From a phage: DNA of 64,000 nt. The position numbers and the translations under genes are program-made. The notes under the pieces are model-generated. The model was not told the origin of the DNA. It saw nothing but the letters and a program-made list of their open reading frames with translations, and made no database searches. The DNA lies in assembly GCA_024683775.1 (NCBI GenBank), contig GCA_024683775.1_4106.1. One strand, written 5' to 3'. Of this stretch, positions 29,591 to 48,302 are shown in pieces (position 1 is the first letter of the stretch; every line of letters starts with the position of its first letter).

Positions 29591-30201
29591 TTTATTTTGT
29601 TTTTTCCAATAGTTCCCCTACCGCGTGGGGATAGTTTCCCCGCAGTATCTGGCGTTAGATTTTTCTGAATCTGGAATCATTATCTTATAAACTGGGGGCA
29701 ATGTCAACGACCTGGACGGATATTTTTAAAAATTTTTTCAGTACTGAATTTTGGGCGTAACTATGCACCCGGTGGGCTTGAGTCTTTCTCGACTTGATGG
29801 AACTATTATACAGTACTGAAAAAATAAAGCAATACCCTGGAAGCAAAAAAGTTTTAATTAATTTGCTTGCTATCCTGGGCCGGACTATGGTACTATATTT
29901 CAGTACTGAGAAAGTGCGTTTACCTGCTAGGGTGCGGGAGTGTATCCTTTTTTTATATCTTGAATTTTGGGCGGATCTTCCCACCCCCTGGGGTATCCGC
30001 TTTCTCGCGTCTATGTAGTAATTATACGCTTTTTCAGGATCAAGTCAATACCTAAAAACAAAATAATTGAAAATAATTTAACGCGTTTAAACGGCCTGTA
30101 AAGCCCTGGAATGATTGGAATGGTGCAAATGTATAGCTTATGTGTATTAATGCGTTAGAATGCGTCTGAGGCCGTTTTACGGGGTATAGGGATGATTTAG
30201 T

Positions 30202-30355
30202 GGATTGATTCAGTACTGAATAATAGTACTCCTATATAGAAAGATAGTTCCCCTGGATTGATTCAGTACTGAATAATAGTACTCCTATATAGAAAGATAG
30301 TTCCCCTGGATTGATTCAGTACTGAATAATAGTTCCCCTATATAGAAAGAAAACT
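30202..30355. repeat. three tandem direct repeats of 53 bp
   Basis: Unit GGATTGATTCAGTACTGAATAATAGTACTCCTATATAGAAAGATAGTTCCCCT at 30202, 30255 and (degenerate) 30308. Confidence 0.8.
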
Positions 30356-30381
30356 ATTTTAAAAGTATTTGTAGAAAGTAC

Positions 30382-30409
30382 TTGCACCGTACTGATAAAA
30401 GCGTATAAT
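30382..30409 (+). promoter_or_regulatory. early promoter (conserved type)
   Basis: AGTACTTGCAC -35-like (TTGCAC 30382-87), 16-bp spacer, TATAAT 30404-09, then GTTTTACATC start region. Confidence 0.65.
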
Positions 30410-30423
30410 GTTTTACATCGAGA

Positions 30424-30440
30424 GCGGGAACACTTCCCGC
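30424..30440 (+). promoter_or_regulatory. conserved GC-rich 5'UTR stem-loop
   Basis: GCGGGA-ACACT-TCCCGC immediately downstream of promoter start region and upstream of SD/ATG 30465. Confidence 0.6.
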
Positions 30441-30464
30441 TACACATTACGAGAGATTAAAACG

Positions 30465-30827
30465 ATGGCGACTCAAATCAATAAAATTATTGCTAACCTG
30501 GTTAACTTCCGCGACGAGATGAAAGATCTTCCGGCGGCAACGGTTAAAACTCACATTGACGCATACCGCGAACTGATTAAAATGCTGCCGCTTAAGCGTG
30601 AACAATACGCCGCTACCGTGATGCTTGATGCGATGATCCATAAGATGATCTCAAATGATTTGACGATGGTTTATCAGTATATGGGTGAAAATTTCGCGGT
30701 GTGCAGTAAGCCAGTACCAGGGATGGCAACAACTGAGGAATTGCACGGCTTAAACTTAAAACAAGATGCATGGGATAATATGCCTCGTTTCCTGGTATGG
30801 GCTGACAGTGGCAAAATTTACAAATAA
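30465..30827 (+). CDS. hypothetical early protein (120 aa)
   Basis: Start at ATG 30465; the tracked N-terminal extension MFYIESG... is translation of the promoter -10/hairpin. Confidence 0.7.
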   Translation: MATQINKIIANLVNFRDEMKDLPAATVKTHIDAYRELIKMLPLKREQYAATVMLDAMIHKMISNDLTMVYQYMGENFAVCSKPVPGMATTEELHGLNLKQDAWDNMPRFLVWADSGKIYK

Positions 30828-30841
30828 GTTTAATAAAGTAC

Positions 30842-30869
30842 TTGCAAACTATGTTTAATGGCGTATAAT
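30842..30869 (+). promoter_or_regulatory. early promoter (conserved type)
   Basis: TTGCAA 30842-47, 16-bp spacer, TATAAT 30864-69, GTTTTACATC, then stem-loop GGGGAATAGTTCCCC. Confidence 0.65.
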
Positions 30870-30919
30870 GTTTTACATCAGGTGGGGAATAGTTCCCCAC
30901 TATATAAGAGGATTAAAAA

Positions 30920-31159
30920 ATGGCTAAATCAAAAAAGTTCTTAGGTCACAAAAACAAAACTCATTGGAATGTAAGCCTTTGGATTAATAACGATGAGGGA
31001 TTGTATCGGTTGGCCCTGGATTTTATTAACGACAACACTAATCGCAATGATGCGGCCCGTCATATGATGTTATTTTTAGAACAGACTGGACAAGATAAAA
31101 CACCGGACGGATTCAAATATAGCACTACTGCGATCCGTGCGGCAATGGTTGGAATGTAA
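30920..31159 (+). CDS. hypothetical early protein (79 aa); paralog of 32960
   Basis: SD AGAGGA; shares GHKNKTHWNVSLWINN and PDGFKYSTTAIRAAMVGM with 32960 ORF. Confidence 0.7.
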   Translation: MAKSKKFLGHKNKTHWNVSLWINNDEGLYRLALDFINDNTNRNDAARHMMLFLEQTGQDKTPDGFKYSTTAIRAAMVGM

Positions 31160-31244
31160 TAGAATTTATTTAAAGTACTATCATTTTTTGCGATAGTACT
31201 TTATAATAGTGTTTTATTCATACACCAACGATAAGGGCAACAGC

Positions 31245-31511
31245 ATGAATATTAAGTATTTTGCGACGCGTGAACAAGCTCGGATCGCCGCACGCCAGGA
31301 CGGGGCAACGTTTAAAGATATGGGCGTACAATCGGAACGTGGTAAACGTTGGGCCATTGTAAAGCGTAGTACCGCCAGATCATTACAGTACTGGTTAGCG
31401 GCCTTAAAAAGTCCCGATAGTGTATCGCGTCGAGTGGTAGAAATAAAGCTCGACCGAAAGGGCAACCGCGTGACCGTGTACCGTACTAAAAAGATTGCAG
31501 TACTTGAATAA
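31245..31511 (+). CDS. hypothetical early protein (88 aa); paralog of 43401
   Basis: Start at ATG 31245 with AAGGG SD; shares FATREQARI..GETFKDMG..RKGNRVTVY with 43401 ORF. Confidence 0.7.
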   Translation: MNIKYFATREQARIAARQDGATFKDMGVQSERGKRWAIVKRSTARSLQYWLAALKSPDSVSRRVVEIKLDRKGNRVTVYRTKKIAVLE

Positions 31512-31598
31512 AAAGTACTTGCTAACTATGTTTAAAGGCGTATAATGTTTTACATCGAGAGCGGGAACTCTTCCCGCCTATAACCTGGAGTAATAAAA

Positions 31599-31829
31599 AT
31601 GACTAATATGTATATGACTGAAGTTAAAACCGTAAAAGATACTACCACGAATAAAACTACTTACTTACAGCGGATCTGTGGTGTATGGCAACGTATCAGC
31701 AAATCAAAGTACTTTAAATTAACATCATATGCAAATCGTTCGGATTCATTCAGTACTGAAATAAAAGGTAATAAAGTACACCAATACGGCACTTATTATT
31801 ATTACAGCCTGGACGCGATTGCAGTATAA
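31599..31829 (+). CDS. hypothetical early protein (76 aa)
   Basis: Promoter + stem-loop GCGGGAACTCTTCCCGC upstream; SD GGAG. Confidence 0.65.
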   Translation: MTNMYMTEVKTVKDTTTNKTTYLQRICGVWQRISKSKYFKLTSYANRSDSFSTEIKGNKVHQYGTYYYYSLDAIAV

Positions 31830-32257
31830 GCAGTTTACAAATCTTTACAATTGCCGGTATTGACTTATTTTGTCAGTACTGGCATAATGTATTCATTGGC
31901 AGATAAGCCGTAGCCCATAGGGTGCGGGAGTGTATCTATAGAAAAATTAGTTTAGTATAGTTACAATTGTGCACCCGGTGGGTTAGCTGTTGTCATGGGG
32001 TATATTATGCCAGTACTTGATAATGCTGTCAATACTTTTTTTTTACTATTCAGTACTGAAAACTATTTTTAAAAAGTACTTGTAAACTATGTTTAAAGGC
32101 GTATAATGTTTTACATCAGGACGGGGAACGAAATAAGTAACTTCCCGTTAAGTAGCCCAGGAGTAAGGCACACGAAAAACTCCCCTGATAAAATAGTTTG
32201 ACAATAGAAAGTAAAAGCGTATAATACTTACATCAACTACTGAATGAGGGTTACAAA

Positions 32258-32869
32258 ATGAAAACTATCACTACTACTACTTTTGTTATGGCTTTTTCTG
32301 AACTGAACGCAGAACAAAAAACGGCGGCTATCGAACTGGTTCGGGATCGTGAGCGTTCATGTGAGGATAATTTCTTTGCTGAGGGCGTTATCGAGTACTA
32401 TAAAGAAACAGTACTACCAGAATACGGCATAGATGAAGCTGAATTGCAATACAGTGGTTTTTGGTCGCAAGGTGACGGTGCATCAATCAGTACTGACCAC
32501 GTTGACGCAGTGAAGTTTTTACGCAAGGTAAGAGCATTAACTAAGTATCGCTCAATCCGTCACTTGCTGAATGAAGATGATTTGGCGATGAGTGTAGAAC
32601 GTTCACACTCTCGCTACGCACACGAAAACACGGTAAGCGGGTACATTGAATCGGCTTACACTGATTTAACCGCAAAACAAGAAACGTTAGTTAATGAGCT
32701 TGAGGAACTACTCACTGAAACTATTCGTGAATTGTCCCGCAAGTTGTACCGTGATTTAGAGAATGCATATGAGGATCAATTCACTACTGAAAACATTACG
32801 GCACTGATTGAGGGTAACGAATATCAATTCAATGTTATTGATGGCGTAGTGGAATCAATCGAATATTAA
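32258..32869 (+). CDS. hypothetical acidic early protein (203 aa)
   Basis: ORF with two upstream promoter-like boxes (32075-32110 and 32195-32230); SD GAGGG. Confidence 0.7.
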   Translation: MKTITTTTFVMAFSELNAEQKTAAIELVRDRERSCEDNFFAEGVIEYYKETVLPEYGIDEAELQYSGFWSQGDGASISTDHVDAVKFLRKVRALTKYRSIRHLLNEDDLAMSVERSHSRYAHENTVSGYIESAYTDLTAKQETLVNELEELLTETIRELSRKLYRDLENAYEDQFTTENITALIEGNEYQFNVIDGVVESIEY

Positions 32870-32881
32870 TTTAAAAAGTAC

Positions 32882-32909
32882 TTGCAAACTAAGTTTAAAA
32901 GCGTATAAT
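32882..32909 (+). promoter_or_regulatory. early promoter (conserved type)
   Basis: TTGCAA 32882-87, spacer, TATAAT 32904-09; stem-loop GCGGGGAATGGTTCCCCGC 32923-41. Confidence 0.65.
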
Positions 32910-32959
32910 ACTTTATATCGAGGCGGGGAATGGTTCCCCGCTCAAACGAGGATTTAAAA

Positions 32960-33199
32960 ATGGCTAGTACTAAAACTTACAACGGACACAAAAACAAAAC
33001 TCATTGGAATGTAAGCCTTTGGATTAATAACGGTGAGTCATTGTATCGGCTTGCACAAAGTTGCATCGCACAAAGTAGAACTAAAGATATTGCTGCGGAA
33101 TGTATGTACCGCAGATTAAAAGCCAACGGTACTACTACAACGCCGGACGGCTTTAAGTATAGCACTACTGCGATCCGTGCTGCAATGGTTGGAATGTAA
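32960..33199 (+). CDS. hypothetical early protein (79 aa); paralog of 30920
   Basis: Start at ATG 32960; conserved C-terminus identical to 30920 ORF. Confidence 0.7.
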   Translation: MASTKTYNGHKNKTHWNVSLWINNGESLYRLAQSCIAQSRTKDIAAECMYRRLKANGTTTTPDGFKYSTTAIRAAMVGM

Positions 33200-33256
33200 T
33201 ATTCAGTACTGAGATAATGGCGGGTAATAGTTCCCGCCTTTACTGAGGGTTATCTA

Positions 33257-33517
33257 ATGAGTAAAGTAATTAGCTATACAGCACTAAGCAAGACATTATC
33301 TATTAGCCAGTGCACCGATGGTTATTGGCTATTTGATGAAACGCGTGGCATGAATTTAGCCATGCGTGCAAAAACTGCTGAGGCGGCGTATCTTGAAGCA
33401 TTGGAATACTACCAGGAACGTTTAAAGGAAGTAGAAGAAGATTATAAAAGCCTCAAAGCGAAAGTAGATCATTTCGTCGGTCAATTCATCGAGGAAGACG
33501 ACGACAAACAATATTGA
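33257..33517 (+). CDS. hypothetical early protein (86 aa)
   Basis: ORF preceded by stem-loop GGCGGGTAATAGTTCCCGCC 33219-38 and SD GAGGG. Confidence 0.65.
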   Translation: MSKVISYTALSKTLSISQCTDGYWLFDETRGMNLAMRAKTAEAAYLEALEYYQERLKEVEEDYKSLKAKVDHFVGQFIEEDDDKQY

Positions 33518-33603
33518 AAAAGTACTTGCAATTAGTTTTCAGTACTGTATAATGGTTTACATCAAAGGGAGAAATGGTTCTCCCTGGTAATGAGGAAAAT
33601 AAA

Positions 33604-33825
33604 ATGGCTAATATCACTACTCTTTCCCAACTGGAAGCACTGGTTAAATCTATGCGGGAACATGCCGACAAAATCGGCGTACAAGATCCAGCCGTTTGCT
33701 TCTGCGACGAATTGAATGATGATACCCTGGTAATAGCAGAAGTCCAGGACGTTTCTAACTATTCCTCGCGTTACACTGGCGGCGTAGCAAATAAAGGCGA
33801 CTTCTGTTTATACCTTACAAAATAA
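33604..33825 (+). CDS. hypothetical early protein (73 aa)
   Basis: Start at ATG 33604 after promoter and stem-loop GGGAGAAATGGTTCTCCC; SD GAGGAAAA. Confidence 0.65.
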   Translation: MANITTLSQLEALVKSMREHADKIGVQDPAVCFCDELNDDTLVIAEVQDVSNYSSRYTGGVANKGDFCLYLTK

Positions 33826-33828
33826 CAA

Positions 33829-33860
33829 CGCGGGGAGATAATAACTCCCCGTTACTTTTT
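33829..33860 (+). terminator. rho-independent terminator
   Basis: CGGGGAG-ATAATAA-CTCCCCG stem-loop followed by TTACTTTTT. Confidence 0.6.
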
Positions 33861-34068
33861 CAGTACTGAATCATTTAATAGACGGATCTCGGCACCCGGT
33901 GGGTTAGTGACTGTTTCGTCTTGATGTAGTAATTATGCCAGTACTGGATGCACTTGTCAACAACTATTTTTCAAATACTTTTTATTAAAATACTTGCAAT
34001 TAGTTTTTAAACGCGTATAATGTTTTGCATAGGGGGAGCGGTTCCCCTGGTAACTAAGGAATAATAAA

Positions 34069-34305
34069 ATGCTTGAACAAATCAAATCAACGTCTGCGAA
34101 TGTAACGGGAACGGTAGTACACTTTACTAGTGATGAATCGCGGGGTGTACCCTATTGTGCTGTACATGTAAACACTGAGGGTAACTACTGGTTTACGGTT
34201 TACGGATCATATTCATTTGGACGACCAGGGCATCAAAAAATTCTGGATAAAGTACAGCCAACGGGTAAAAATATCACTGCTGAAATGTTTTATAAAAAAT
34301 CATAA
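34069..34305 (+). CDS. hypothetical early protein (78 aa)
   Basis: Promoter + stem-loop GGGGGAGCGGTTCCCC upstream; SD AAGGAA. Confidence 0.65.
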   Translation: MLEQIKSTSANVTGTVVHFTSDESRGVPYCAVHVNTEGNYWFTVYGSYSFGRPGHQKILDKVQPTGKNITAEMFYKKS

Positions 34306-34389
34306 AGTACTTGATAATAGTTTTTAGTACTGTATAATATTTTACATCGCAAGGGGGAGCGGTTCCCCCTGGTAACTAAGGATAATCAA

Positions 34390-34689
34390 ATGAAAATTAC
34401 AATCATCGCCCTGGCTTTATCTGTTTCCTCTTTCGCTGTTAATGCGTCATTAGATGTAAGTAGTGAAAAATTCATTCAGTGCACTGTTGCAATGACCGAT
34501 GAAAGTACTGGCGAGATTGTATTAAAGGATCTGGAGATTCAGCCGGAAGCATTTAAAAACGGCCCGTTCCATGAAGAAGACGAAAACGGTAGCACGACAA
34601 TTTATTATGATGCCAGTACTAAACGCGGTTCGGTCACTGTAATGGATACCGAGAAAGTAACTCATACCGGCGTTATTAATTGCCGTTGA
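34390..34689 (+). CDS. small secreted/periplasmic protein (99 aa) with N-terminal signal peptide
   Basis: N-term MKITIIALALSVSSFAVNASL: basic residue, hydrophobic core, A-x-A-like cleavage site (VNA-S); promoter + stem-loop upstream. Confidence 0.65.
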   Translation: MKITIIALALSVSSFAVNASLDVSSEKFIQCTVAMTDESTGEIVLKDLEIQPEAFKNGPFHEEDENGSTTIYYDASTKRGSVTVMDTEKVTHTGVINCR

Positions 34690-34710
34690 TAGATACTACG
34701 GGGTAACATC

Positions 34711-34941
34711 ATGACTAAGCGAATTGTTTTACTTAACGAAAGCAGTACTACACAACTACTTAACGCCGTGCATTATGATATTGAAACGAGCGTTAATCTT
34801 ATCAGTACTGTCGTACTGTTGGACACTGGAAAGGTCGCCAATGATAAAGCGATTGCAGGTATACTAACGGATCTTGAGCCTGGTAGCAGTGCACCAATAA
34901 CGTTAAATGGTAAAGTGTTTAATATTTTACTCACTGATTAA
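34711..34941 (+). CDS. hypothetical early protein (76 aa)
   Basis: ORF with SD; followed by terminator. Confidence 0.6.
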   Translation: MTKRIVLLNESSTTQLLNAVHYDIETSVNLISTVVLLDTGKVANDKAIAGILTDLEPGSSAPITLNGKVFNILLTD

Positions 34942-34947
34942 GTACAT

Positions 34948-34976
34948 AGCCCACCTGGTGGGCTTTTTTGTTTTTG
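34948..34976 (+). terminator. rho-independent terminator
   Basis: AGCCCACC-TGGTGGGCT palindrome followed by TTTTTTGTTTTTG. Confidence 0.75.
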
Positions 34977-35174
34977 TAGTATCGTAGTACTGAGATACTT
35001 TGAAAATAGTTTTAAGAAAGTAGTTGACATTACCGCAGAAAAGCGTAGAATGTATTACATCAAGACGGGGAGCACTAAGTAGACCGCCAGTAAGTCGAAC
35101 GAAAAACTGGACACGTCGAGAAAACTTTGATACACTAATAAACGTAAACTAAACTTTAATTGAGGATTTATAAA

Positions 35175-35657
35175 ATGGCTAATGTAAAATCATTCATCAA
35201 AGCACTGGTAGCAAATGAAACTAACGTCGCGGCTGAGATCCTGGCTGAACTGGATAACGATACCATGAAAGCGGTACGCAATAATTTTAACATCGCGTAC
35301 AGTACTGCGAAAGAACTACAAGCAAATAAAGCGGCAGAAATTGAAGCGGCAAAGGCGGCCCGTGAAGCAGAACTACAAGCAACAATCGAAAGTATTCAGG
35401 CGGCAGTAGTTGGATTGGATCTGGAAGTAGTTACAGAGATGGCACAAAAAGCCCTGGCGGTTAAGTATGGGGAAGACAAGCCAGAAGTAAAAGCCAAAAA
35501 ATGGATTCAGGAACGCGTAGCGGTAGTACTGGACAACGGGGAAGAATATCTGATTCCGGTGCGTGGTAACTGCATTGCGGTAGTACTGGATGCGATTAAC
35601 TCCAGTGGTATGACTCGCGAGGAATGGATCAAAGCTCATCGCAAAGTTGAAGCATAA
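35175..35657 (+). CDS. hypothetical early protein (160 aa), alanine/glutamate-rich, predicted helical
   Basis: Start at ATG 35175 with SD GAGGA; followed by terminator. Confidence 0.7.
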   Translation: MANVKSFIKALVANETNVAAEILAELDNDTMKAVRNNFNIAYSTAKELQANKAAEIEAAKAAREAELQATIESIQAAVVGLDLEVVTEMAQKALAVKYGEDKPEVKAKKWIQERVAVVLDNGEEYLIPVRGNCIAVVLDAINSSGMTREEWIKAHRKVEA

Positions 35658-35678
35658 CAATTAAAGTACTGAATCACT

Positions 35679-35710
35679 AGCCCACTGTATAAGTGGGCTT
35701 TTTTGTGTTT
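35679..35710 (+). terminator. rho-independent terminator
   Basis: AGCCCAC-TGTATAA-GTGGGCT stem-loop followed by TTTTTTGTGTTT. Confidence 0.75.
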
Positions 35711-35941
35711 ATCGTTTACCATGCCACCAGCACCGCCTAGAAACGATTCTAACGCATTAAACTGATTATCTGATGCATTGCCCTAGCTGGTGGCGTTAAG
35801 GCTGTAAGAACGCGATTGAGAGCGTTTAAAGTATTTTGCAAAAAGTAATAAAAAGTACTTGCACGATTAAGAGATTAGCGTATAATGTTTTACATCGAGA
35901 GGGGGAAACGGTTCTCCTTCCAAATCAAAGGAATTAAAACA

Positions 35942-36169
35942 ATGGCTATCGTAATCACTCGCGTAACTGGTACTACTGGCAATTCTTCTACTGTTGCTGT
36001 AATTACTAATAAGAAAGGTGCGGAATTGCATTTTGCAATGGATAAATGGGCCGTTAATGAGTTCGGTCAGTGGGCAAGTGTAGCATACATTGAAACCTAT
36101 CAAGTGCCGTCGATTAGTTTAACTGATTTGGGCGTTGAGCGTATCCTTTGCCTGGATGAATTAAATTAA
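35942..36169 (+). CDS. hypothetical early protein (75 aa)
   Basis: Start at ATG 35942 after promoter + stem-loop; tracked extension MFYIERGK is promoter-derived. Confidence 0.65.
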   Translation: MAIVITRVTGTTGNSSTVAVITNKKGAELHFAMDKWAVNEFGQWASVAYIETYQVPSISLTDLGVERILCLDELN

Positions 36170-36255
36170 AAAAGTACTTGCAAAGTAAATCAGATAAAGT
36201 ATAATACATTACATCAAGGGGAGAAATGGTTCTCCCTGATAATGAGGAAACTAAT

Positions 36256-36399
36256 ATGAAAACTTGTCAATGTGGTAAAAAATCTATTACTGGTTTAAAG
36301 CGGGGCGTTGCACTTTGCCAGTACCATTATAATTTACAAGTATGGGGTAAAGAATGGGCCGACCAGGTGGAAGCAGCAAAGAAAGCAAAAAGTAAGTAA
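36256..36399 (+). CDS. small cysteine-containing protein (47 aa)
   Basis: ORF below track cutoff found by reading; preceded by promoter, stem-loop GGGAGAAATGGTTCTCCC and SD GAGGAAA. Confidence 0.5.
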   Translation: MKTCQCGKKSITGLKRGVALCQYHYNLQVWGKEWADQVEAAKKAKSK

Positions 36400-36417
36400 A
36401 ATATTATCACAGTACTA

Positions 36418-36446
36418 TTGACATAGTTTGATAGTACTGGCATAAT
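36418..36446 (+). promoter_or_regulatory. sigma70 consensus-like promoter
   Basis: TTGACA 36418-23, 17-bp spacer, CATAAT 36441-46. Confidence 0.65.
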
Positions 36447-36489
36447 AGATTTTATCAAGACGACACATATTAATTTAAGGAATACTAAA

Positions 36490-37487: not shown

Positions 37488-37492
37488 TTAAT

Positions 37493-38382: not shown

Positions 38383-38384
38383 AA

Positions 38385-41047: not shown

Positions 41048-41125
41048 TACTTGCATTTAGTTTTCAGTACTGTTATAGTACTTGCATCAAGGGGAAACAT
41101 CTTCCCCTACTAAGAGGAAATAAAA

Positions 41126-41314: not shown

Positions 41315-41399
41315 AAAAGTACTGGACAATAGATTATAGTACTGTATAATAGTTTACATGAAGGGGAGAAATGATTCTCCCCACTAAGAGGAAAGAAAA

Positions 41400-41612
41400 A
41401 TGCAAGGTCAACTAATCGTTCGTAAATGGTCTGATACTAACGAAAAACCGTGGGATGTACAATACATCGCCCCAAATGGTGAATCCAGATATCAACCAGG
41501 TGTAACGCATAGTACTGAGCAATTCGCCGCCGCTCATCGCGAACGTCTGTTACAATCAATGCAGCACGGTTCCGGTGAAAAATTCATTCAGGATCATTGG
41601 CTGAAAGATTAA
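41400..41612 (+). CDS. hypothetical early protein (70 aa)
   Basis: Promoter + stem-loop GGGGAGAAATGATTCTCCCC + SD. Confidence 0.65.
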   Translation: MQGQLIVRKWSDTNEKPWDVQYIAPNGESRYQPGVTHSTEQFAAAHRERLLQSMQHGSGEKFIQDHWLKD

Positions 41613-41698
41613 AAAGTACTTGCACAGTACTGAATAAAGTGTATAATGTTTTATATCGGAAGGGGAATAGTTCCCCTCCTAACAAAGAGGAAAGTATA

Positions 41699-41872
41699 AT
41701 GGTCCAGGTAGAATTAACAGTACTGAAAGATCTGTTTTATCGGATTGGTACTACTGGCGAATATCCGAAGGGTGATAATGCAAAACTTTACGTATCACTC
41801 GACTTATGGCAACGCGAACAATTAGCAACGGCCTGGCGTAAAGGCAAAGCAGATAGCGAGGTGAAAGCATGA
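41699..41872 (+). CDS. hypothetical early protein (57 aa)
   Basis: Start at ATG 41699 after promoter + stem-loop GGGGAATAGTTCCCC + SD AGAGGAAA. Confidence 0.55.
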   Translation: MVQVELTVLKDLFYRIGTTGEYPKGDNAKLYVSLDLWQREQLATAWRKGKADSEVKA

Positions 41873-42018
41873 AAGAATTCTTATTTGAAGTAGTGTTTCA
41901 AGGTGTCGGTAATAACCAACTGATTCGATCAAGTGGTTATAATGTTAACCAGGCATGGAATAACATTAAACAAATGTACCCGAACGCTATCACATATCGC
42001 AACCCGAAAGAAGTTTAA
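41869..42018 (+). CDS. hypothetical early protein (49 aa)
   Basis: ATGA overlap with previous stop; ORF below track cutoff. Confidence 0.4.
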   Translation: MKEFLFEVVFQGVGNNQLIRSSGYNVNQAWNNIKQMYPNAITYRNPKEV

Positions 42019-42030
42019 AAATAATTGAAA

Positions 42031-42056
42031 AAGGGATTGACTCCGGTCAGTCCCTT
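42031..42056 (+). terminator. conserved hairpin of the recurrent intergenic module (copy 2)
   Basis: AAGGGATTGACTCCGGTCAGTCCCTT near-palindrome followed by TGCTATTATATA. Confidence 0.5.
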
Positions 42057-42343
42057 TGCTATTATATACGCATAGAAACAAATTAGCCCACCGGGTGCAT
42101 AAATGTATCTATTGTTTGCTGGTGGCTAGTACTATCAAGTACTGAAAACTATTTTTAAAAAAGTACTTGCAAAGTATCACGATAAGCGTATAATGTTTTA
42201 CATCAGGACGGGGAACGAAATAAGTAACCCCGTTAAGTAGTCCAGGAGTAAGACATACGAAAAACTCCCCTGATAAAATAGTTTGACAATAGAAAGTAAA
42301 CGAGTATAATACTTACATCAACCACTGATAAGGAAACATTAAA

Positions 42344-42619
42344 ATGCGGACTTTACTTACAGCTAACGAAATCGAGCAAGTACTGACTACTAATCTGGAA
42401 CAATGGAAACGTGAAGCAGATATCCAGGCGGTTCAATGCCTTAACGATAAGTTAACGCCAGATGACTTAAGCACGATTGTTGATCCACAATTTTATGAAG
42501 ATATTCACGACACGTCTTTAAGCGTCGAGGATGTACTTGATAAGCACTACATTGATACTGATTTACATGTTTACGGTCGTAAAAACTTTATCACTATTCA
42601 CGACATTTACAATACTTAA
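42344..42619 (+). CDS. hypothetical early protein (91 aa)
   Basis: Two promoter-like boxes upstream (42165-42200, 42280-42315); SD AAGGAAA. Confidence 0.65.
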   Translation: MRTLLTANEIEQVLTTNLEQWKREADIQAVQCLNDKLTPDDLSTIVDPQFYEDIHDTSLSVEDVLDKHYIDTDLHVYGRKNFITIHDIYNT

Positions 42620-42707
42620 GTATTGACAAAGTATCTTAGTACTGTATAATAGTTTACATCAAGTGAGGGGAAACGGTTCCCCTCCTAACAAAGAGAGAGA
42701 AATTAAA

Positions 42708-42890
42708 ATGGCTAAGTGCACTATCTGTAAGAAAGAAATCGTATTAGTTCCAAGTGCCCGTGAACGTGCCGCTCGGTTCGGTGGCAAAGCGTCAGACTAT
42801 ACAAAAATGTTTACTGCCCATGCAGCTTGTCAAGTAGCAAAACGTTCACAAGAAAGCGTAGAATTAATGCGTAAACTTTCCAAAAAATAA
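42708..42890 (+). CDS. hypothetical early protein (60 aa), cysteine pair CTIC + CQ
   Basis: Start at ATG 42708; promoter + stem-loop GAGGGGAAACGGTTCCCCTC upstream. Confidence 0.6.
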   Translation: MAKCTICKKEIVLVPSARERAARFGGKASDYTKMFTAHAACQVAKRSQESVELMRKLSKK

Positions 42891-42977
42891 GTATTGACAA
42901 AGTATCTTAGTACTGTATAATAGTTTACATCAAGCGAGGGGAATGGTTCCCCTCCTAACAAAGAGAGAGAAATAAAA

Positions 42978-43301
42978 ATGGCTATGATCCTTACCCAGAA
43001 AGTAGAACTGAAAATTGTAACCTCCTTTGACATTAAAGTTAATCGGTGGACTGATAGCCACGGCAATACTTACCACTCCTGCTACGTGTCCGCATTGATT
43101 GGTGATCGCTGGGAAGACCTGGGACACGAAACCTTTACATACGGTTACGGCACACAAGGTGAGTACACGGGTTTAGAAATCATTAAGGAAACTGTAATAG
43201 GTTTCAACCCGAAAGAGAAAGTACTACACAGAATTGAGAAAGAGATCAACAAAGAAATTACAGTTCGCTACTACGATGTAAAACGTAAGAAAGACATGTA
43301 A
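42978..43301 (+). CDS. hypothetical early protein (107 aa); paralog of 36490
   Basis: Promoter + stem-loop + SD; similarity to 36490 ORF. Confidence 0.7.
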   Translation: MAMILTQKVELKIVTSFDIKVNRWTDSHGNTYHSCYVSALIGDRWEDLGHETFTYGYGTQGEYTGLEIIKETVIGFNPKEKVLHRIEKEINKEITVRYYDVKRKKDM

Positions 43302-43400
43302 TAGAATCCATTTAAAGTACTATTTGACATTGCCCAGATAGTACTTTATAATAGACTCTAACTTGTAGTACTAATTAACTTAACTAATAGGATGTACACC

Positions 43401-43796
43401 ATGATTACTAAATTCTTCGCTACCCGTGAACAAGCTCGCATCGTTGCCCGTGAGGAAGGTGAAACATTTAAAGACATGGGTAAAGATTCTCCTACTGGTA
43501 AACGCTGGGCGGTACAGTTCAAAGAGATCTCTGATATTGTGAATTCACCTGAGCCTGTACTTACAGCAGCAGAACTAAAGCAAGCTCAAGAACTGGCTGA
43601 AGTACTGAACGCTCAAGATGACTTCTTGAAAGGTTCTGATATTGAAGTTACAGTTAACGCAAATGCATGGACTCACGCGGATCACCTGGCAAACCTTAAG
43701 CGTCCAAGTGAACTGATTCGCAACCAGAAAGAGATCCGACACGACCGTAAGGGTAATCGTGTAACAGTATACAGTAAACGCCGCCAGGTTATCTAA
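43401..43796 (+). CDS. hypothetical early protein (131 aa); paralog of 31245
   Basis: Start chosen at ATG 43401 (AGGA SD 9 nt upstream); similarity to 31245 ORF. Confidence 0.65.
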   Translation: MITKFFATREQARIVAREEGETFKDMGKDSPTGKRWAVQFKEISDIVNSPEPVLTAAELKQAQELAEVLNAQDDFLKGSDIEVTVNANAWTHADHLANLKRPSELIRNQKEIRHDRKGNRVTVYSKRRQVI

Positions 43797-43818
43797 TAAC
43801 TTGCAGTACTAACAACAC

Positions 43819-43843
43819 GGCGGGATCAGTTCCCGCCTTTTTT
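43819..43843 (+). terminator. rho-independent terminator
   Basis: GGCGGGA-TCAGT-TCCCGCC followed by TTTTTTA. Confidence 0.7.
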
Positions 43844-43857
43844 ATAGGACAAACAAA

Positions 43858-44112
43858 ATGATTAAGGTTCAACTATATAAAGATAACATCTTACGGGTAC
43901 ACTATAAAGCACCTCAGAGAATCATCACAAAGGCCGTACAGCTTGCTAATGAGTTTATTAATGGTAACCTATTACCTAGGAAGTTAAGCAACGGGAAACT
44001 GCGTGTAATCGACGTGGACACTAACAACAGGATAGTAATCGAGAACACAGGAAAGATAAACCTTTATGAGCATCAACAATACAATAAGAAAATAAAACTA
44101 ATATCACGTTGA
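43858..44112 (+). CDS. hypothetical protein (84 aa)
   Basis: ORF with SD AGGA. Confidence 0.55.
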   Translation: MIKVQLYKDNILRVHYKAPQRIITKAVQLANEFINGNLLPRKLSNGKLRVIDVDTNNRIVIENTGKINLYEHQQYNKKIKLISR

Positions 44113-44165
44113 CAGTACTCAATTGTTTTAGTACTATGTACACATACCAACACGGGAGAAACAAA

Positions 44166-44384
44166 ATGAAATTATCTAAAATCGAAAAGAAAACTATTGA
44201 TGAAGCAGTTAAGCACGGTTATACCTTTCGTAATGATTCACATTTTACCAATTTTCAACAAGGGTATCGTACTATTAAAAAACTAATTGACAAAGGTTTA
44301 TTAGTTGAAGTCAATAACGGTAACGGTATCGAGTATCAACCAACACAAGACGCATTTTATTTTAAGAAATATAATATTATCTAA
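44166..44384 (+). CDS. hypothetical protein (72 aa)
   Basis: Start at ATG 44166 with SD GGGAGAAA. Confidence 0.55.
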   Translation: MKLSKIEKKTIDEAVKHGYTFRNDSHFTNFQQGYRTIKKLIDKGLLVEVNNGNGIEYQPTQDAFYFKKYNII

Positions 44385-44442
44385 TTGACAGTACTCAATT
44401 GTTTTAGTATTATGTACACATACCAACACGGGGGGAAACAAA

Positions 44443-44685
44443 ATGATTACTTTAGAAAAACGTATCAAAGAAACTACATCGCTGGTGGAACTGTTAACAG
44501 TACTCAAATGTAAAACAACACCATTCAGCACGCCGGACTTTATTAATATGGTTGATGTTAATGGTCGCTATCGTATCACGGTCGAACAAGGAGCGGCGAA
44601 AGTATTCAGTACTAAAAACACTAAGGAAGTGATCCACGCCGTTAATGTTAAAAAAGTAGTTGCCATTGATAGTAAAGTACTGTAA
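44443..44685 (+). CDS. hypothetical protein (80 aa)
   Basis: SD GGGGGGAAA; upstream region duplicates that of 44166 (TTGACAGTACTCAATTGTTTTAGTA.TATGTACACATACCAACACGGG). Confidence 0.55.
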   Translation: MITLEKRIKETTSLVELLTVLKCKTTPFSTPDFINMVDVNGRYRITVEQGAAKVFSTKNTKEVIHAVNVKKVVAIDSKVL

Positions 44686-44716
44686 TATAGTTTCATTAAC
44701 TCAAGGAGAACATGCA

Positions 44717-45301
44717 ATGCGTAAATATACTAAATTCATCCGTACACTGTCAGAAATGGAAACCAACAAAGAGATCCTTTCAGCTTGTCGGTTAGCTGGC
44801 CTGGAGATCATCGGTGCTGGTTCTTCCCGTATAGTATTCGCTTTAAATGATCGGTTAGTGATTAAGGTCGCGAATTGTGATGCGGGTGTCGAACAAAATG
44901 AAACTGAATGTAAGGTATGGAATTTTTTAGACTATGACCGCCCTCAGTTGAAACAGTACTTTGCAAAGGTGCATATGCATTTATGCGATCCTGATAATAT
45001 GTTTATCGTTATGGATCGGTTGAGTACTGCAAGCAAAGGCAGTGTGAAGCACGTAAACGCGTGCAATGAATTAAAGTACAATATTAAACGTAATGCAATC
45101 GAACGCCAGCACCGCTTTGCTGATGCACTACAACACGTTGATGATACATTATCAACACTAACGATAAGAGATATCAGAAAACAGAATATCGGCCAGGATC
45201 GTAATGGACTTATTAAAGTACTTGATTACGGTTTAACCAGCAATATCTGGAATCAGTACTATAAAAAGCGTGATGTGGCAGCAAGTAAGGTAACACGATA
45301 A
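44717..45301 (+). CDS. putative protein kinase-like protein (194 aa)
   Basis: Motif order matches a kinase fold: GAGSSRIV (Gly-rich loop), VIKVA (VAIK-like Lys), IRDIRKQN (catalytic loop D..N), LDYG (DFG-like); SD AAGGAGAA. Confidence 0.5.
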   Translation: MRKYTKFIRTLSEMETNKEILSACRLAGLEIIGAGSSRIVFALNDRLVIKVANCDAGVEQNETECKVWNFLDYDRPQLKQYFAKVHMHLCDPDNMFIVMDRLSTASKGSVKHVNACNELKYNIKRNAIERQHRFADALQHVDDTLSTLTIRDIRKQNIGQDRNGLIKVLDYGLTSNIWNQYYKKRDVAASKVTR

Positions 45302-45312
45302 AAAAGATTAAA

Positions 45313-45340
45313 AAAGGGATTGACTCCGGTCAGTCCCTTT
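45313..45340 (+). terminator. conserved hairpin of the recurrent intergenic module (copy 3)
   Basis: AAGGGATTGACTCCGGTCAGTCCCTTT then GCTATTATATAT. Confidence 0.5.
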
Positions 45341-45525
45341 GCTATTATATATCCATTGAGAGATAACTCACTGACCCATAGGGTGCGGAAGTGTATCTAT
45401 TATATAAGTATTCAGTACTGAAAACTATTTGATAAAAAGTACTTGCAAACTATCTCAATGAGCGTATAATGTTTTATATCGAGAGGGGGAAATGGTTCTC
45501 CCTGGTACTAAAAGGAATCAAGACG

Positions 45526-45747
45526 ATGACTACTATGACCTGCGTTCACGCTTCAAATCTTCTGAATGATGCAGCATTTAAAGCAGGTGAAGAATATCAA
45601 TGCTATCGGGATGAAAATAAAAAAGTTTTCGTCGTTGATGCTAACGGTTTCCATATTGAATTGCAATCCGGCTTCACTGGTTTAAATGGTAAATCAGTAT
45701 GGGGCGTTAATGATGATAATGGTCTTTATCACTTTATCCGTAATTAA
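45526..45747 (+). CDS. hypothetical early protein (73 aa)
   Basis: Start at ATG 45526 after promoter + stem-loop GGGGGAAATGGTTCTCCC + SD AAAGGAA. Confidence 0.6.
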   Translation: MTTMTCVHASNLLNDAAFKAGEEYQCYRDENKKVFVVDANGFHIELQSGFTGLNGKSVWGVNDDNGLYHFIRN

Positions 45748-45751
45748 GTAT

Positions 45752-45779
45752 TTGACAAAGTATATCAGTACTGTATAAT
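45752..45779 (+). promoter_or_regulatory. sigma70 consensus promoter
   Basis: TTGACA 45752-57, 16-bp spacer, TATAAT 45774-79; stem-loop GGGGAGAATAGTTCTCCCC 45792-45810. Confidence 0.7.
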
Positions 45780-45831
45780 AGTTTACATCAAGGGGAGAAT
45801 AGTTCTCCCCGATACTAAAAGGAATAAAATC

Positions 45832-46239
45832 ATGACTACTACCAATCAAGCTCGGAACATCACCAACGATAAAAATCATGCTGCAATGGTCGCTGGATAC
45901 ATTGAAGCTATGCAATTCAGTACTGTATACAATGAGAACGGCGATTACCTGGAAGATTATGAATTATCAGAGCAAGCCCATCAAGCGGCAGTGATTGCAT
46001 GTTCACGTTTCCTTGCTGTACATGGTGAAGATATGGAAACAGTACAAAAACACCATAATCCTGATTATACTTATAGTCATGCAGGTCATGATCTCTTTCT
46101 TACTCGCGAAGGTCACGGCACTGGTTTTTGGGATCGTGGTTTAGGTCACTATGGCGATGTATTCACGAAGTACTGCGAAGAAATCAACGTTTGCGATCCC
46201 TATGTAGGCGATGATAACTTAATCTATATGGGCGAATAA
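45832..46239 (+). CDS. hypothetical early protein (135 aa), His/Gly-rich C-terminal half
   Basis: ORF with promoter, stem-loop, SD AAAGGAA. Confidence 0.7.
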   Translation: MTTTNQARNITNDKNHAAMVAGYIEAMQFSTVYNENGDYLEDYELSEQAHQAAVIACSRFLAVHGEDMETVQKHHNPDYTYSHAGHDLFLTREGHGTGFWDRGLGHYGDVFTKYCEEINVCDPYVGDDNLIYMGE

Positions 46240-46328
46240 AAGTATTTGACAAAGTATATCAGTACTGTATAATAGTTTACATCAAGGGGAGAATAGTTCT
46301 CCCCACACCAATAAAAGGAAACAAAATT

Positions 46329-46601
46329 ATGTCCAGCTACTCCGCTACTATGATCATTAAAGATATGAACGGTAATCCTACTTCTGCTGGTGGATCATTT
46401 GGAAATATTAACTTAGATGGGCGGTTATCCATGCAATCAGCCATCGATGCAGCGAAAGAAGTTTTTAAGAATGAATGTACTGTTAGTAAGCTGGATTATA
46501 TGGGTTTCGCTATCGAGAAAACTACTCGTTTTGTGAACTACAAAAATCCACTGATGATTGATACTAACCTGAAAGCTAACGAAGTGGGGTACTTATTATG
46601 A
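46329..46601 (+). CDS. hypothetical early protein (90 aa)
   Basis: Upstream region (46243-46300) is a near-copy of the 45752 promoter/stem-loop; SD AAAGGAA. Confidence 0.7.
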   Translation: MSSYSATMIIKDMNGNPTSAGGSFGNINLDGRLSMQSAIDAAKEVFKNECTVSKLDYMGFAIEKTTRFVNYKNPLMIDTNLKANEVGYLL

Positions 46602-46789
46602 CAGTAGAAGAAGTAAAAAAAGTACTGGCAGTACTACGATATCATAATCATTGCAAGGTGAAGAATGATCCTGATTATCTTGATTCATCCCTGGAGGAAG
46701 ACACCTTGAACGCTATAAGCCATATGCAGACATTAGCAAAGCGTATGACTGAAAAGAACATGCCGGACTATATCGGAAATAAAATTTAA
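46598..46789 (+). CDS. hypothetical early protein (63 aa)
   Basis: ATGA overlap with previous gene. Confidence 0.55.
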   Translation: MTVEEVKKVLAVLRYHNHCKVKNDPDYLDSSLEEDTLNAISHMQTLAKRMTEKNMPDYIGNKI

Positions 46790-46876
46790 AAAGTACTTGC
46801 ATTGTAGTTAGATTAACGTATAATGTTTTATATCGAGAGGGGGAAATGGTTTCCCCTCAAGTCCAGGAGATACACC

Positions 46877-47140
46877 ATGAACACTATCGAAATCACTATC
46901 AATGCACACGTATACGACAACGTAGTACTGCAAACTACTATGACCGCCAATGATACCAGTACTTTGCGGAATACTGTTATTAGTGCCGTATGTGCCGCTA
47001 TCGGTGATGTCGCCCTGGAAAATGCAAAACACGTAAACGATGGTTTCACTATGTGCAAACGTGATAACGCAAAACATATCATCGTGGAAGGTTACGGCGG
47101 TGTAGAATTTAATGTTTATATGAAAAAAGTACTTGCATAA
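46877..47140 (+). CDS. hypothetical early protein (87 aa)
   Basis: Start at ATG 46877 after promoter + stem-loop GGGGGAAATGGTTTCCCC + SD AGGAGA. Confidence 0.65.
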   Translation: MNTIEITINAHVYDNVVLQTTMTANDTSTLRNTVISAVCAAIGDVALENAKHVNDGFTMCKRDNAKHIIVEGYGGVEFNVYMKKVLA

Positions 47141-47207
47141 TAACTAAAACAAAGTATAATGTTTTGCATAGGGGGAGATATCCTCCCCCACTAAAAGGAG
47201 TAATAAA

Positions 47208-47432
47208 ATGGCTAACTTTGATGAACTGATGCGGGAAGTAGCTAACCTGGCAGAAGAGAAGAAATCATTCGATTCTATCTATAACACCGCTCACCGTGAT
47301 TCAGTACTGGCATGTAACCAGGATCAAAAAGATGAACTAATCGCCACCTATCATGAAGCATGGAAGTACTACCGACAATGGGAGAAAGAAGAAAGTGAGT
47401 CTACCATTGACGGCCTCAATAATCTAATCTAA
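47208..47432 (+). CDS. hypothetical early protein (74 aa)
   Basis: Promoter + stem-loop GGGGGAGATATCCTCCCCC + SD AAGGAG. Confidence 0.65.
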   Translation: MANFDELMREVANLAEEKKSFDSIYNTAHRDSVLACNQDQKDELIATYHEAWKYYRQWEKEESESTIDGLNNLI

Positions 47433-47508
47433 AAGTTTTATTTCAGTACTATTGACATAGCTTGATAGTACTGATGTAATAACTTTACTAACTACAAGGG
47501 GAAACATA

Positions 47509-47766
47509 ATGGATCAGTTCACACAATATCGGGTAAATCCTCAAGCTATGGCCTACGTAGAAGACCATAAAACGTTACCAGTACTGCAACCAGTTAAAGG
47601 CCATATCTATCGTGCAATGTCGTGGTGTACGGCCCAGGATGGCTATAAAACCGTAGCCGTGGGTATGTATTGCGGTGATGGTGAATGGTTTGATCCAAAT
47701 AATCCGGTATCCATTGACAGTACTGAAAAAATGAAATGGGCCGACTACATCGAAGATATTTCATAA
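47509..47766 (+). CDS. hypothetical early protein (85 aa)
   Basis: TTGACA 47452-57 / TGTAAT promoter; SD AAGGGGAAA. Confidence 0.65.
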   Translation: MDQFTQYRVNPQAMAYVEDHKTLPVLQPVKGHIYRAMSWCTAQDGYKTVAVGMYCGDGEWFDPNNPVSIDSTEKMKWADYIEDIS

Positions 47767-47856
47767 AAACTATTTGACAGTACTAACCAGTAATGTATAA
47801 TGTTTTACATAGAGCGGGGGAATAGTTCTCCCGCCAATAGTTTGGAGTAAAACATT

Positions 47857-48057
47857 ATGTCTATCGCTATCGCCCTGGTTGAAGTACTGAAAGAAGCTAA
47901 AGCCAACCAGATCGACGTAAAGATCCAGGAACTACAAAACGGCTTAATCGGCTGTACTTGTACCGCTGGTGGAGCGGCAGACTATCGAGAACACGAATCA
48001 CTCGAATCACTGGTTCGGTATCTTACCATGATCGTTGATGATTGGAGAATCATCTAA
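47857..48057 (+). CDS. hypothetical early protein (66 aa)
   Basis: Promoter + stem-loop GCGGGGGAATAGTTCTCCCGCC + SD GGAG. Confidence 0.65.
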   Translation: MSIAIALVEVLKEAKANQIDVKIQELQNGLIGCTCTAGGAADYREHESLESLVRYLTMIVDDWRII

Positions 48058-48071
48058 CAAAAAAGAATAAA

Positions 48072-48098
48072 AAAAGGGATTGACTCCGGTCAGTCCTT
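48072..48098 (+). terminator. conserved hairpin of the recurrent intergenic module (copy 4)
   Basis: AAGGGATTGACTCCGGTCAGTCCTTTT then GCTATTATATA. Confidence 0.5.
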
Positions 48099-48302
48099 TT
48101 GCTATTATATACGCATAGACAAAAACTAGCCCACAGGGTGCATAGGTGTATCCAAAATATATAGTTAATAACGGTGAGTAACTATCTGCTGGTGGAACTA
48201 AAACTATTAATAAAAAAGTATTGACAAAGTATATCAGTACTGCAATAATGTATCTCGTAGGGCGGCAATGGTGCGACGGCCCACAAAGTTAGGAGATTCA
48301 AA

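Follow-up and report, generated by a model that had tools for sequence, protein, structure and literature searches.

The Terminal Repeat and Its Repeated Element

The window considered here is a stretch of 64,000 nucleotides from a contig (GCA_024683775.1_4106.1) of a Rak2-like jumbo coliphage, and the subject of this report is a short element repeated between its genes at 29.7-48.2 kb, which carries two small hairpins (H1 and H2) and lies just downstream of sigma70-type promoters. The 29-49 kb portion of the window shares 95% identity with Escherichia phage vB_Ec-M-J (Asteriusvirus, 378.6 kb) and has weaker matches to about 225 phage records, including SP27, G17 and CMSTMSU. In the record of vB_Ec-M-J (OQ718158), 'Direct Terminal Repeats' are annotated at 1-21525. 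Window position 28675 aligns with position 1 of that record, and the alignment runs on colinearly beyond record position 21525 through to the window end; from the annotation and the colinear alignment, window 28675 to about 49555 corresponds to the direct terminal repeat (DTR), the right boundary being approximate. The DTR contains every copy of the element in the window. To its left the window holds the right end of the unique region (1-28.7 kb), and to its right the left end of that region (49.6-64 kb). It is an early-gene region of many small hypothetical genes on the + strand, and sigma70-like promoters are present in excess (105 versus 65.6 +/- 7.2 expected), 12 of them perfect 12/12 matches.

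An earlier note on this DNA had described a recurrent motif occurring in both orientations. Searching both strands for GCACCCGGTGGG with up to two mismatches returned 11 matches. Shuffling the window 100 times with dinucleotides preserved gave 0.60 +/- 0.79 matches and never as many as 11; the repeat is genuine and far above chance. The string CCCNNNGGGTGC occurs exactly at nine places: 29765(-), 31914(+), 31971(-), 33892(-), 38447(+), 40103(+), 42087(+), 45375(+) and 48130(+). Coordinates given previously proved right to within 3 nt, the tail [TG]AAGTGTATCTAT was found in most copies, and all copies are indeed intergenic when mapped on the annotated coding sequences of the 95%-identical phage vB_Ec-M-J.

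A covariance model (CM) of 51 positions, comprising H1 and H2, was built from 11 in-register copies. Run without filters, it detected 10 significant copies in the window plus one marginal, degenerate copy, all within 29747-48159, and none in the 28.7 kb to the left or the 15.8 kb to the right of the 29.7-48.2 kb segment. Two overlapping two-mismatch matches at 34950/34951 correspond to a palindromic terminator hairpin, AGCCCACCTGGTGGGCT, followed by a T-run and unrelated to the family; they are regarded as non-members because the CM has no match there.

The leftmost unit lies on the minus strand at 29747-29797 (48.7 bits, E 3e-12) and has an H1 stem of AGTC/GACT, an H2 of CCCACCGGG and the tail ACGCCCAAAATT, with its promoter (TTGCTT-16-TATAAT) at 29832-29805(-). 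The copy previously called partial, at 29927, is real: it reads CTAGGGTGCGGGAGTGTATCC and falls in a degenerate + strand unit at 29904-29953 (14 bits, E=0.19) that lacks the 5' half of H2 and in which a terminator scan detected AGGGTGCGGGAGTGTATCCT plus T7 as a terminator-like hairpin at 29929-29948. Facing it tail to tail, with 9 nt between the matches of the filter-free scan, is a diverged unit that had been overlooked, 29963-30013(-), which reads CCCCAGGGGGTGG (20.9 bits, E=0.0014) behind a TTGACT-16-TATAAT promoter at 30048-30021(-). A second convergent tail-to-tail pair, again with a gap of 9 nt, is made up of 31894-31943(+) (47 bits, H1 TGGC/GCCG, promoter TTGACT-17-TG-CATAAT at 31860-31888) and 31953-31992(-) (29 bits, E 4e-6, no H1, promoter TTGACA-17-TG-CATAAT at 32032-32004(-)). 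The unit at 33874-33924(-) (36.9 bits, promoter 33960-33932(-)) is antisense to its flanking genes and is followed by a bidirectional terminator at 33851-33831(-), predicting a stand-alone RNA of about 100 nt (33925 to about 33822). The three copies that had been noted in the GCACCC orientation are thus units expressed from minus-strand promoters antisense to the surrounding genes, and not one site that has been flipped.

On the + strand, units are spaced 2-3 kb apart and occupy the larger gaps between genes of the DTR, and five of them are co-directional with the gene clusters that they precede. These are 38426-38476 (62.2 bits, H1 TGAG/CTCA), behind a composite hairpin/promoter at 38385-38420 and followed by a second promoter (TTGCAA-16-TATAAT, 38515-38542) and a gene at 38594; 40082-40132 (39.3 bits), with a TTGACA-17-TG-CATAAT promoter at 40046-40074; 42071-42116 (39.7 bits, no H1), with a composite hairpin/promoter at 42030-42065 and a second promoter at 42167-42194; 45354-45404, the top-scoring unit (66.2 bits, E 1e-17), with a composite hairpin/promoter at 45313-45348 and a second promoter at 45443-45470; and 48114-48159 (41 bits, no H1), with a composite hairpin/promoter at 48073-48108 and the next promoter at 48221-48249. 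The gene directly 3' of the unit at 40082 starts at 40370 and encodes a DksA/TraR zinc-finger protein.

Distribution Among Related Phages

Clustering in relatives was assessed from exact-pattern scans of whole IMG/VR contigs, while the CM was run on the window, on 50 kb of vB_Ec-M-J and on fragments of the other genomes. Multi-copy pattern matches were found only in contigs of 345-378 kb, including RaK2, GAP32, 121Q and CBB; other IMG/VR contigs had single matches, most of them CM-negative. Matches in the complete genomes of RaK2, GAP32 and 121Q occupy one stretch of about 15-25 kb each, and those in CBB fall within its terminal repeat, which measures 22,456 bp (PMC5259590). Scanning positions 1-50000 of vB_Ec-M-J with the CM located copies only at 1082-20128, within the DTR. 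In the two genomes with a defined terminal repeat, therefore, units occur only inside that repeat.

Over 31 loci the CM identified at least 116 copies, at least 112 of them distinct. There are about 10 copies per genome, and the element has been kept in at least Asteriusvirus, RaK2, GAP32 and CBB. Most of 39 unrelated IMG/VR loci carrying the search pattern were CM-negative; the additional copies were limited to a single other contig plus three fragments of metagenomes, apart from two marginal matches elsewhere. As far as sequence can tell, the repeats constitute a family of promoter-coupled, strand-specific, structured RNA elements that is conserved across several genera.

Coupling to Early Promoters

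When the copies are read in the direction CCC-N3/4-GGGTGC, a strong sigma70 promoter lies upstream on the same strand of every copy in the window, with the -10 box ending 21-28 nt before CCC. In a set of 83 distinct units drawn from this phage and related ones, a sigma70 match of at least 10/12 stands at the fixed offset in 84%, compared with 1.2% of random positions in the same loci, and in most units the -10 box ends 5-7 nt before a conserved CAT. The promoters of this class (P1) consist of TTGACT or TTGACA and 17 nt, often TG-extended (52 of the 83 units), followed by TATTAT, CATAAT or TATACT. The A of CAT is the predicted start site, which would place the motif at about +15 to +45 of the transcript; the element itself begins 2-5 nt past that position. 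Strong promoters outside the DTR have no unit according to the CM scan of the window, and the other strong promoters of the DTR, including the 12 perfect 12/12 matches, lack the motif in the CM and promoter scans.

Two promoter types precede the window units. In type 1 (TTGACT-17-TATTAT; at 38385, 42030, 45313 and 48073) the -35 box is inside a 12-bp terminator-like hairpin, whereas type 2 (TTGACA/TTGACT-17-TG-CATAAT) is hairpin-less and carries CAGTACTG in its spacer. The copies had been placed typically between a terminator-like hairpin and the next promoter. This holds for four copies (38447, 42087, 45375 and 48130); however, the stem of the hairpin carries the -35 TTGACT with TATTAT 17 nt further on, making it a composite terminator/promoter that would transcribe the motif. 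The four composite modules (38385-38420, 42030-42065, 45313-45348 and 48073-48108) share the 12-bp hairpin AAAGGGATTGACTCCGGTCAGTCCCTTT and resemble the PeSL cassettes of T4-like phages; in relatives the stem of the module covaries while TTGAC is retained.

Second promoters (TTGCAA-16-TATAAT) follow the units at 38426, 42071 and 45354, and those after 38426 and 45354 have a leader of their own with a 5' hairpin and a Shine-Dalgarno sequence. Transcripts from such promoters would start with CATCGA and then form a GC-rich 5' hairpin just before the Shine-Dalgarno sequence (38543-38593, 30400-30465 and 45471-45540). The stems of these hairpins differ among copies (GGGGAAAC/GTTTCCCC, GCGGGAA/TTCCCGC), and the leader would represent a second, simpler type.

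RNA Structure and Covariation

The predicted RNA element is 51 nt long and consists of a short 5' end, a variable, covarying H1 of 3-5 bp with a purine-rich loop, a linker of 4-5 nt, H2 of 3-4 bp, the trinucleotide UGC, a purine-rich spacer of 5 nt and a tail. H1 stems vary and yet stay complementary, examples being TGAG/CTCA, TGGC/GCCG, AGCA/TGCT, AGACA/TGTCT, GGAG/CTCC, ACCG/CGGT and GCCA/TGGC, among others, and they enclose the loops AGAUAA, AGAACAA, GCGAAA or GAGAAA; H1 is missing from 20 of the 112 distinct units (about 18%). H2 is made up of R-CCC, a loop of 3 or 4 nt that occurs in 15 different sequences, and GGG-U; its closing pair is A-U in 54 units and G·U in 47, and its inner pair includes CCU/AGG variants. 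Past UGC, the third spacer position is A in 78% of the 112 units and the fourth is always a purine, and the following base is U in 94%. The tail conforms to U-N-Y-R-Y-C-Y-R-U and typically reads UGUAUCUAU.

In the alignment of 112 sequences, double-sided changes were found in all four H1 pairs, and 94% of H1 cells were paired versus 31-53% when the partners were slid out of register. The covariation score of H1 was 0.466 compared with 0.143 +/- 0.010 for shuffles, and none of 500 shuffles reached 0.466. Two further analyses, both run on the first model-fitted alignment (A3), agree: a scan of all column pairs by mutual information with average product correction ranked the four H1 pairs first (z 7.5-16) and showed no further long-range signal, and RNAalifold gave the same H1 and H2. 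Counting all eight pairs together, G·U combinations outnumber A·C by 68 to 2, which indicates that folding takes place on the sense strand, unlike what would be expected of a double-stranded protein site.

An outer helix or pseudoknot, in which the tail would pair at long range with the 5' leader or with the loop of H1, was considered and rejected. Self duplexes did not differ from cross duplexes (-4.96 versus -4.70 kcal/mol, with 672 of 5000 permutations as low), and the tail displays no covariation with the 5' leader in the mutual-information scan, which detected H1 only.

Arrangement of Units

Units occur in three settings. A minority are stand-alone, with a promoter, the unit and an intrinsic terminator 40-45 nt on, and are often antisense to neighbouring genes. 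At 33960-33820(-) the layout is that of a stand-alone small RNA gene, with its own promoter and intrinsic terminator around a non-coding stretch that falls in the 50-300 nt range expected of such genes, and equivalents are present in RaK2 and other contigs (L005:9783(-), L005:2715(-) and L045:2606(+)), where GC-rich terminators lie 40-41 nt past the unit. The units are not themselves intrinsic terminators: only the degenerate copy, at 29929-29948, qualifies as one, and a U-run never follows H2.

The second setting is the tail-to-tail pair, which accounts for 44 of 116 units (38%) in 22 pairs; in 17 of the 22 the gap between model ends is exactly 9 nt. With that gap, the predicted start sites of a pair face each other about 110 bp apart, and there is no gene between them. 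In the third setting, co-directional units stand before gene clusters, as at 38426, 40082, 42071, 45354 and 48114.

Possible Function of the RNA

The reading that we tentatively prefer, with somewhat less than even confidence, is that the short RNA itself is the product, H1 acting as a 5' protective hairpin and the invariant H2-UGC-tail segment docking one conserved partner. It is favoured because many units cannot be mRNA leaders and because the leader-type copies have an independent promoter behind them. P1 units would be self-contained mini-genes for a short RNA, in which H1 would shield the 5' end while H2, UGC and the tail would form a recognition surface for a partner that is most likely a protein of the phage or of its enterobacterial host; the many strong copies could swamp the cell with it during the first few minutes after infection. 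An intrinsic terminator might fix the 3' end and yield a transcript of about 100 nt; the end might instead be set by the opposing unit in a tail-to-tail pair, or it might be left unset, in which case the RNA would head an operon transcript and the gene behind it would keep its own consensus promoter (P2).

Several points weigh against this interpretation. Start sites, 3' ends and abundance are all predicted. About 60% of units have no recognisable terminator or partner nearby, and for those units a defined small RNA is a hypothetical product. The alignment from which the pair counts were made was fitted by the CM and is thereby biased toward the structure; the fold of one whole unit has no significant excess of stability over shuffles (z -1.4); and across the 112 sequences the two central pairs of the CCC/GGG stem of H2 never covary, so that support for this helix comes from its variable loop, its R-U closing pair and a small number of CCU/AGG variants. 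Nearly all changes in the tail, moreover, are transitions, and an alternative helix (H3) could form between the tail and GGGUG. Comparison of the ten most conserved DTR open reading frames (ORFs) with Pfam revealed only ParE-like and DksA/TraR domains and no recognisable RNA-binding domain.

Rak2-like jumbo phages (PBECO4/121Q, RaK2, GAP32 and CBB) depend on host RNA polymerase, and to our knowledge almost nothing is known of their early programme. It is possible, if doubtful, that these phages carry 10-20 DTR-only copies of an unrecognised promoter-coupled RNA, made in bulk early in infection, that either acts in cis to reprogramme the RNA polymerase of the host, like a small put/nut analogue that is protein-independent or loads a factor, or titrates a conserved enterobacterial RNA-binding or defence protein. 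If so, the stereotyped tail-to-tail promoter pairs would be a new route to short RNAs without terminators, and modification of RNA polymerase or decoying of a host factor by the RNA would amount to a new mechanism of host takeover. Were the element only a stabilising leader, a conspicuous repeat family would nonetheless be explained and the annotation of about 200 deposited genomes improved. A multi-copy structured RNA offers a concrete, testable handle on the early programme of these phages, and the analysis provides an RNA family with a working CM and 112 distinct members, together with precise predictions of transcription starts for a distinct promoter class.

Alternative Explanations

A cis-acting, promoter-proximal signal of the put/nut/ops type, in which nascent H1-H2-tail RNA or an encoded pause, on emerging at about +45, would bind RNA polymerase or recruit a factor and alter processivity, termination or pausing of transcription from P1, is the main alternative but is considered unlikely. 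A number of features suit it. Like putL (PMC9378689), the element begins near +3 behind a strong early promoter and comprises two hairpins. Of the ten copies in the window, six lie at module boundaries and are directed into gene clusters, and terminators lie within those clusters at 33830, 34948, 35679 and 43819. The boxB hairpin of rrn leaders is dispensable, much as H1 is in some 18% of units. The invariant G55/G56, the near-invariant U65 and the conserved downstream stretch would fit a multipartite pause signal, and the elemental pause consensus is matched by GG at -11/-10, U at -1 and G at +1 (51 of the 112 distinct units); however, G at +1 is found in only 46% of units. Further difficulties are that 38% of units stand opposite a second unit, no gene separating the two, that some run into a terminator antisense to genes, and that every gene cluster has its own consensus promoters, so that read-through is not needed. 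Neither boxA (GCTCTT) nor ops (GGCGGTAG) is present in the 112 units, and at 51 nt with an H2 of 3-4 bp the element is much below the 70-nt put RNA. We regard as quite unlikely the proposal that the repeat is a PeSL-like mobile terminator/promoter cassette, spread by recombination and carrying a generic leader, in which H1 would be an ordinary stabiliser and H2 and the tail would be kept by descent, gene conversion or promoter escape. Four window copies do stand behind a 12-bp hairpin that holds the -35 box, matching the PeSL composite layout (PMC4122927, PMC2839356); the region is one of small ORFan genes with many promoters, five related genomes break synteny beside the unit at 42071, and 5' hairpins are found in P2 leaders too. 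Such a cassette would account for the hairpin and promoter but not for the core, which stays unchanged between genera whose DTR proteins share only 30-50% identity or have no detectable relationship, while the flanking leader, H1 stem, loop and 5-nt spacer diverge freely. An invariant core amid diverging flanks points to purifying selection on the core and not to recent copying, and the absence of the motif from the other strong promoters of the region, among them the 12 perfect ones, also speaks against a generic cassette.

Sequence alone leaves H2 and H3 inseparable. The element could be pictured as an attenuator or switch in which GGGUG(C) has two possible partners, CCC on its upstream side (H2) and the Y-R-Y-C-Y tail on its downstream side (H3), and in which the choice between them sets termination or accessibility; we think this very improbable. 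H3 is pairable in 90% of cases compared with 35-58% when the partners are slid, the transitions in the tail preserve pairing, RNAfold favours H3 in copies whose tail ends in CC, and in 29904(+) H3 is followed by T7 and scored as a terminator. Set against this, H3 is a weak helix, since G·U is the usual combination at three of its pairs, and a U-run follows H3 in only a few units. H3 is not proven, because its 5' strand is invariant and most of its pairs are G·U, and shuffles consequently cannot split it from composition (89% versus 90%). The weakest reading, to which we give least credence of all, is the one toward which the earlier note leaned: a double-stranded DNA operator, bound on a quasi-palindrome downstream of P1 by a dimeric repressor, activator or nucleoid protein. 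The sequence itself is conserved and not structure alone, copies with an ACC loop have the symmetry CACCNGGTG, and a position of +15 to +45 could act as a roadblock. However, the apparent palindrome amounts to no more than CCC and GGG on either side of a loop of variable sequence and length; half-site spacing is 3 or 4 nt; symmetry is lost in the commonest variants (loops ACA and ATA); and conservation runs 20 nt asymmetrically to the 3' side. Orientation to the upstream promoter is strictly fixed, G·U is preferred over A·C as noted above, and the neighbouring hairpin covaries; the dimer-site proposal is not supported. The same note had offered an RNA processing element as another option; its looser idea of an RNA element is borne out, and that support does not extend to processing as such.

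Other candidate identities were tried and rejected. A mini-ORF in the tail (AUG/GUG UAU CUA UAG behind GGAG) would have a start codon in about half of the units and a Shine-Dalgarno spacing of 0-2 nt. The core is GGG-U and not the GGA of a CsrA site (ACA-GGA-UG), and GGA is found elsewhere in the unit in only 64 of 112. Resemblance to the EcoKI site (AAC-N6-GTGC) is a near-miss only, the spacing being N7, and a Chi-like function of the motif is not supported, as GGTGG occurs only in ACC-loop copies and true Chi sites are separately enriched.

Other Features of the Terminal Repeat Region

Chi (GCTGGTGG) is found 13 times in the window compared with 0.72 expected; 12 of the 13 sites are within the DTR and 10 are on the + strand (window 29252-48195). 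This enrichment in the DTR suggests protection of the linear genome ends against RecBCD. The palindrome CAGTACTG is more abundant still, with 56 sites versus 0.68 expected (window 23533-49274; for example 29197-29230, 30211, 30264 and 30317), concentrated within the DTR and just to its left. It occurs in promoter spacers (CAGTACTGGCATAAT), beside -35 boxes (AGTACTTGCAA), 20-30 nt past most of the RNA units and as hairpin-forming inverted pairs. Most likely a phage regulator binds there, or the palindrome is itself a structural element of RNA or DNA.

At the left DTR edge, a 2-kb stretch poor in ORFs (window 28380-30400, the DTR starting at 28675) is occupied by repeats. These include AT-rich GTAATCAT at 28496-28554, a 24-bp repeat present three times at 29482-29553 (TCTGGACGGCTAAACGGCTAGATG), a 53-bp tandem repeat of 2.8 copies at 30201-30350 and, on the minus strand at about 29398-29436, tail-like repeats CTAC(G/A)CCCAAAATCC that lack the H2 core. 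The stretch could hold genome-end, packaging or origin signals. Arrays of seven consecutive + strand ORFs of 61-85 amino acids flank the DTR on both sides (26937-28372 and 49653-51140); they mostly abut or overlap by a few nucleotides, with 4-nt stop/start overlaps throughout the right array, and may be tandem paralogue families. Unlike the DTR, these arrays have few promoters.

The few genes of the DTR that are shared across genera include those for a ParE-like toxin-domain protein (PF24732, E 6e-11, 43858-44112) and a DksA/TraR C4 zinc-finger protein (PF01258, E 4e-9, 40370-40627). Just past the unit at 42071 and a promoter at 42283-42310, at about window position 42329, the relatives fEgEco12, CRJP21, JP4, E9.1 and BF17 all lose colinearity, and in other relatives the match to the window begins at about 41315-41339. 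Such shared breakpoints suggest modular exchange at promoter cassettes.

Comparison With Known Systems

Searching the whole window against Rfam 15 gave no match at the gathering score, and at E <=10 the 29600-34100 segment, where seven copies lie, had only chance-level matches to unrelated families, none overlapping a unit; ARAGORN predicted no tRNA or tmRNA genes in the window. The motif strings had no relevant match in the searchable full-text literature, no description of the element was found in the literature on Asteriusvirus, RaK2, CBB and their transcriptomes, and the genome papers for RaK2, CBB and PA5oct describe no such element. It looks like an undescribed RNA family of a familiar kind, that is, a phage promoter-proximal structured RNA or small RNA.

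Put RNA of phage HK022 binds the zinc-binding domain of the beta' subunit of RNA polymerase and suppresses termination in cis. HK022 putL begins folding at +3 downstream of a strong early sigma70 promoter, has two stem-loops and, as put RNA generally, acts without downstream gene context (PMC9378689). The element described here is similarly located just downstream of an early sigma70 promoter and has two hairpins, and no sequence similarity between the two has been established. They differ in that put is about 70 nt long, both of its stems being long and stem I containing a triplex, whereas the element is about 51 nt with an H2 of 3-4 bp and an optional H1, and in that put is present in two copies per genome, both sense to operons, whereas the element has some 10 or more copies, many of them antisense or convergent. 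With the nut sites of lambda and rrn operons (boxA plus boxB) it may share the design of a promoter-proximal leader module that joins a variable, covarying hairpin with a purine-rich loop to invariant sequence, although 20 of the 112 units lack H1. Unlike lambda nut, however, the 112 distinct units have no boxA (CGCTCTTA-like; GCTCTT), order and conserved sequence differ, and no N-like protein was identified; unlike the RfaH ops site, all units lack the GGCGGTAG core. The size of the element, the number of its copies, the fact that some are convergent or antisense, and the lack of boxA and ops argue against placing it in the put, nut or ops families.

PeSLs of T4-like phages are defined, in the text of the source available, as small composite terminator/promoter sequences (PMC4122927). 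Four of the 11 units resemble them in having a terminator-like stem-loop fused to an early sigma70 promoter in a plastic region of small ORFan genes (PMC4122927, PMC2839356). The element differs in being a transcribed RNA downstream, which is found behind hairpin-less promoters as well; the PeSL definition quoted above mentions no transcribed motif. Dedicated strong promoters and the tail-to-tail placement of some copies recall phage and plasmid small RNAs and the convergent RNA I and RNA II of pAD1 par; unlike RNA I and RNA II, the paired partners are homologous units and not an RNA and its target, and no mRNA target or toxin gene is apparent. Within the familiar kind of RNA to which it seems to belong, the element is unusual for its copy number, its restriction to the terminal repeat and its stereotyped convergent pairs.

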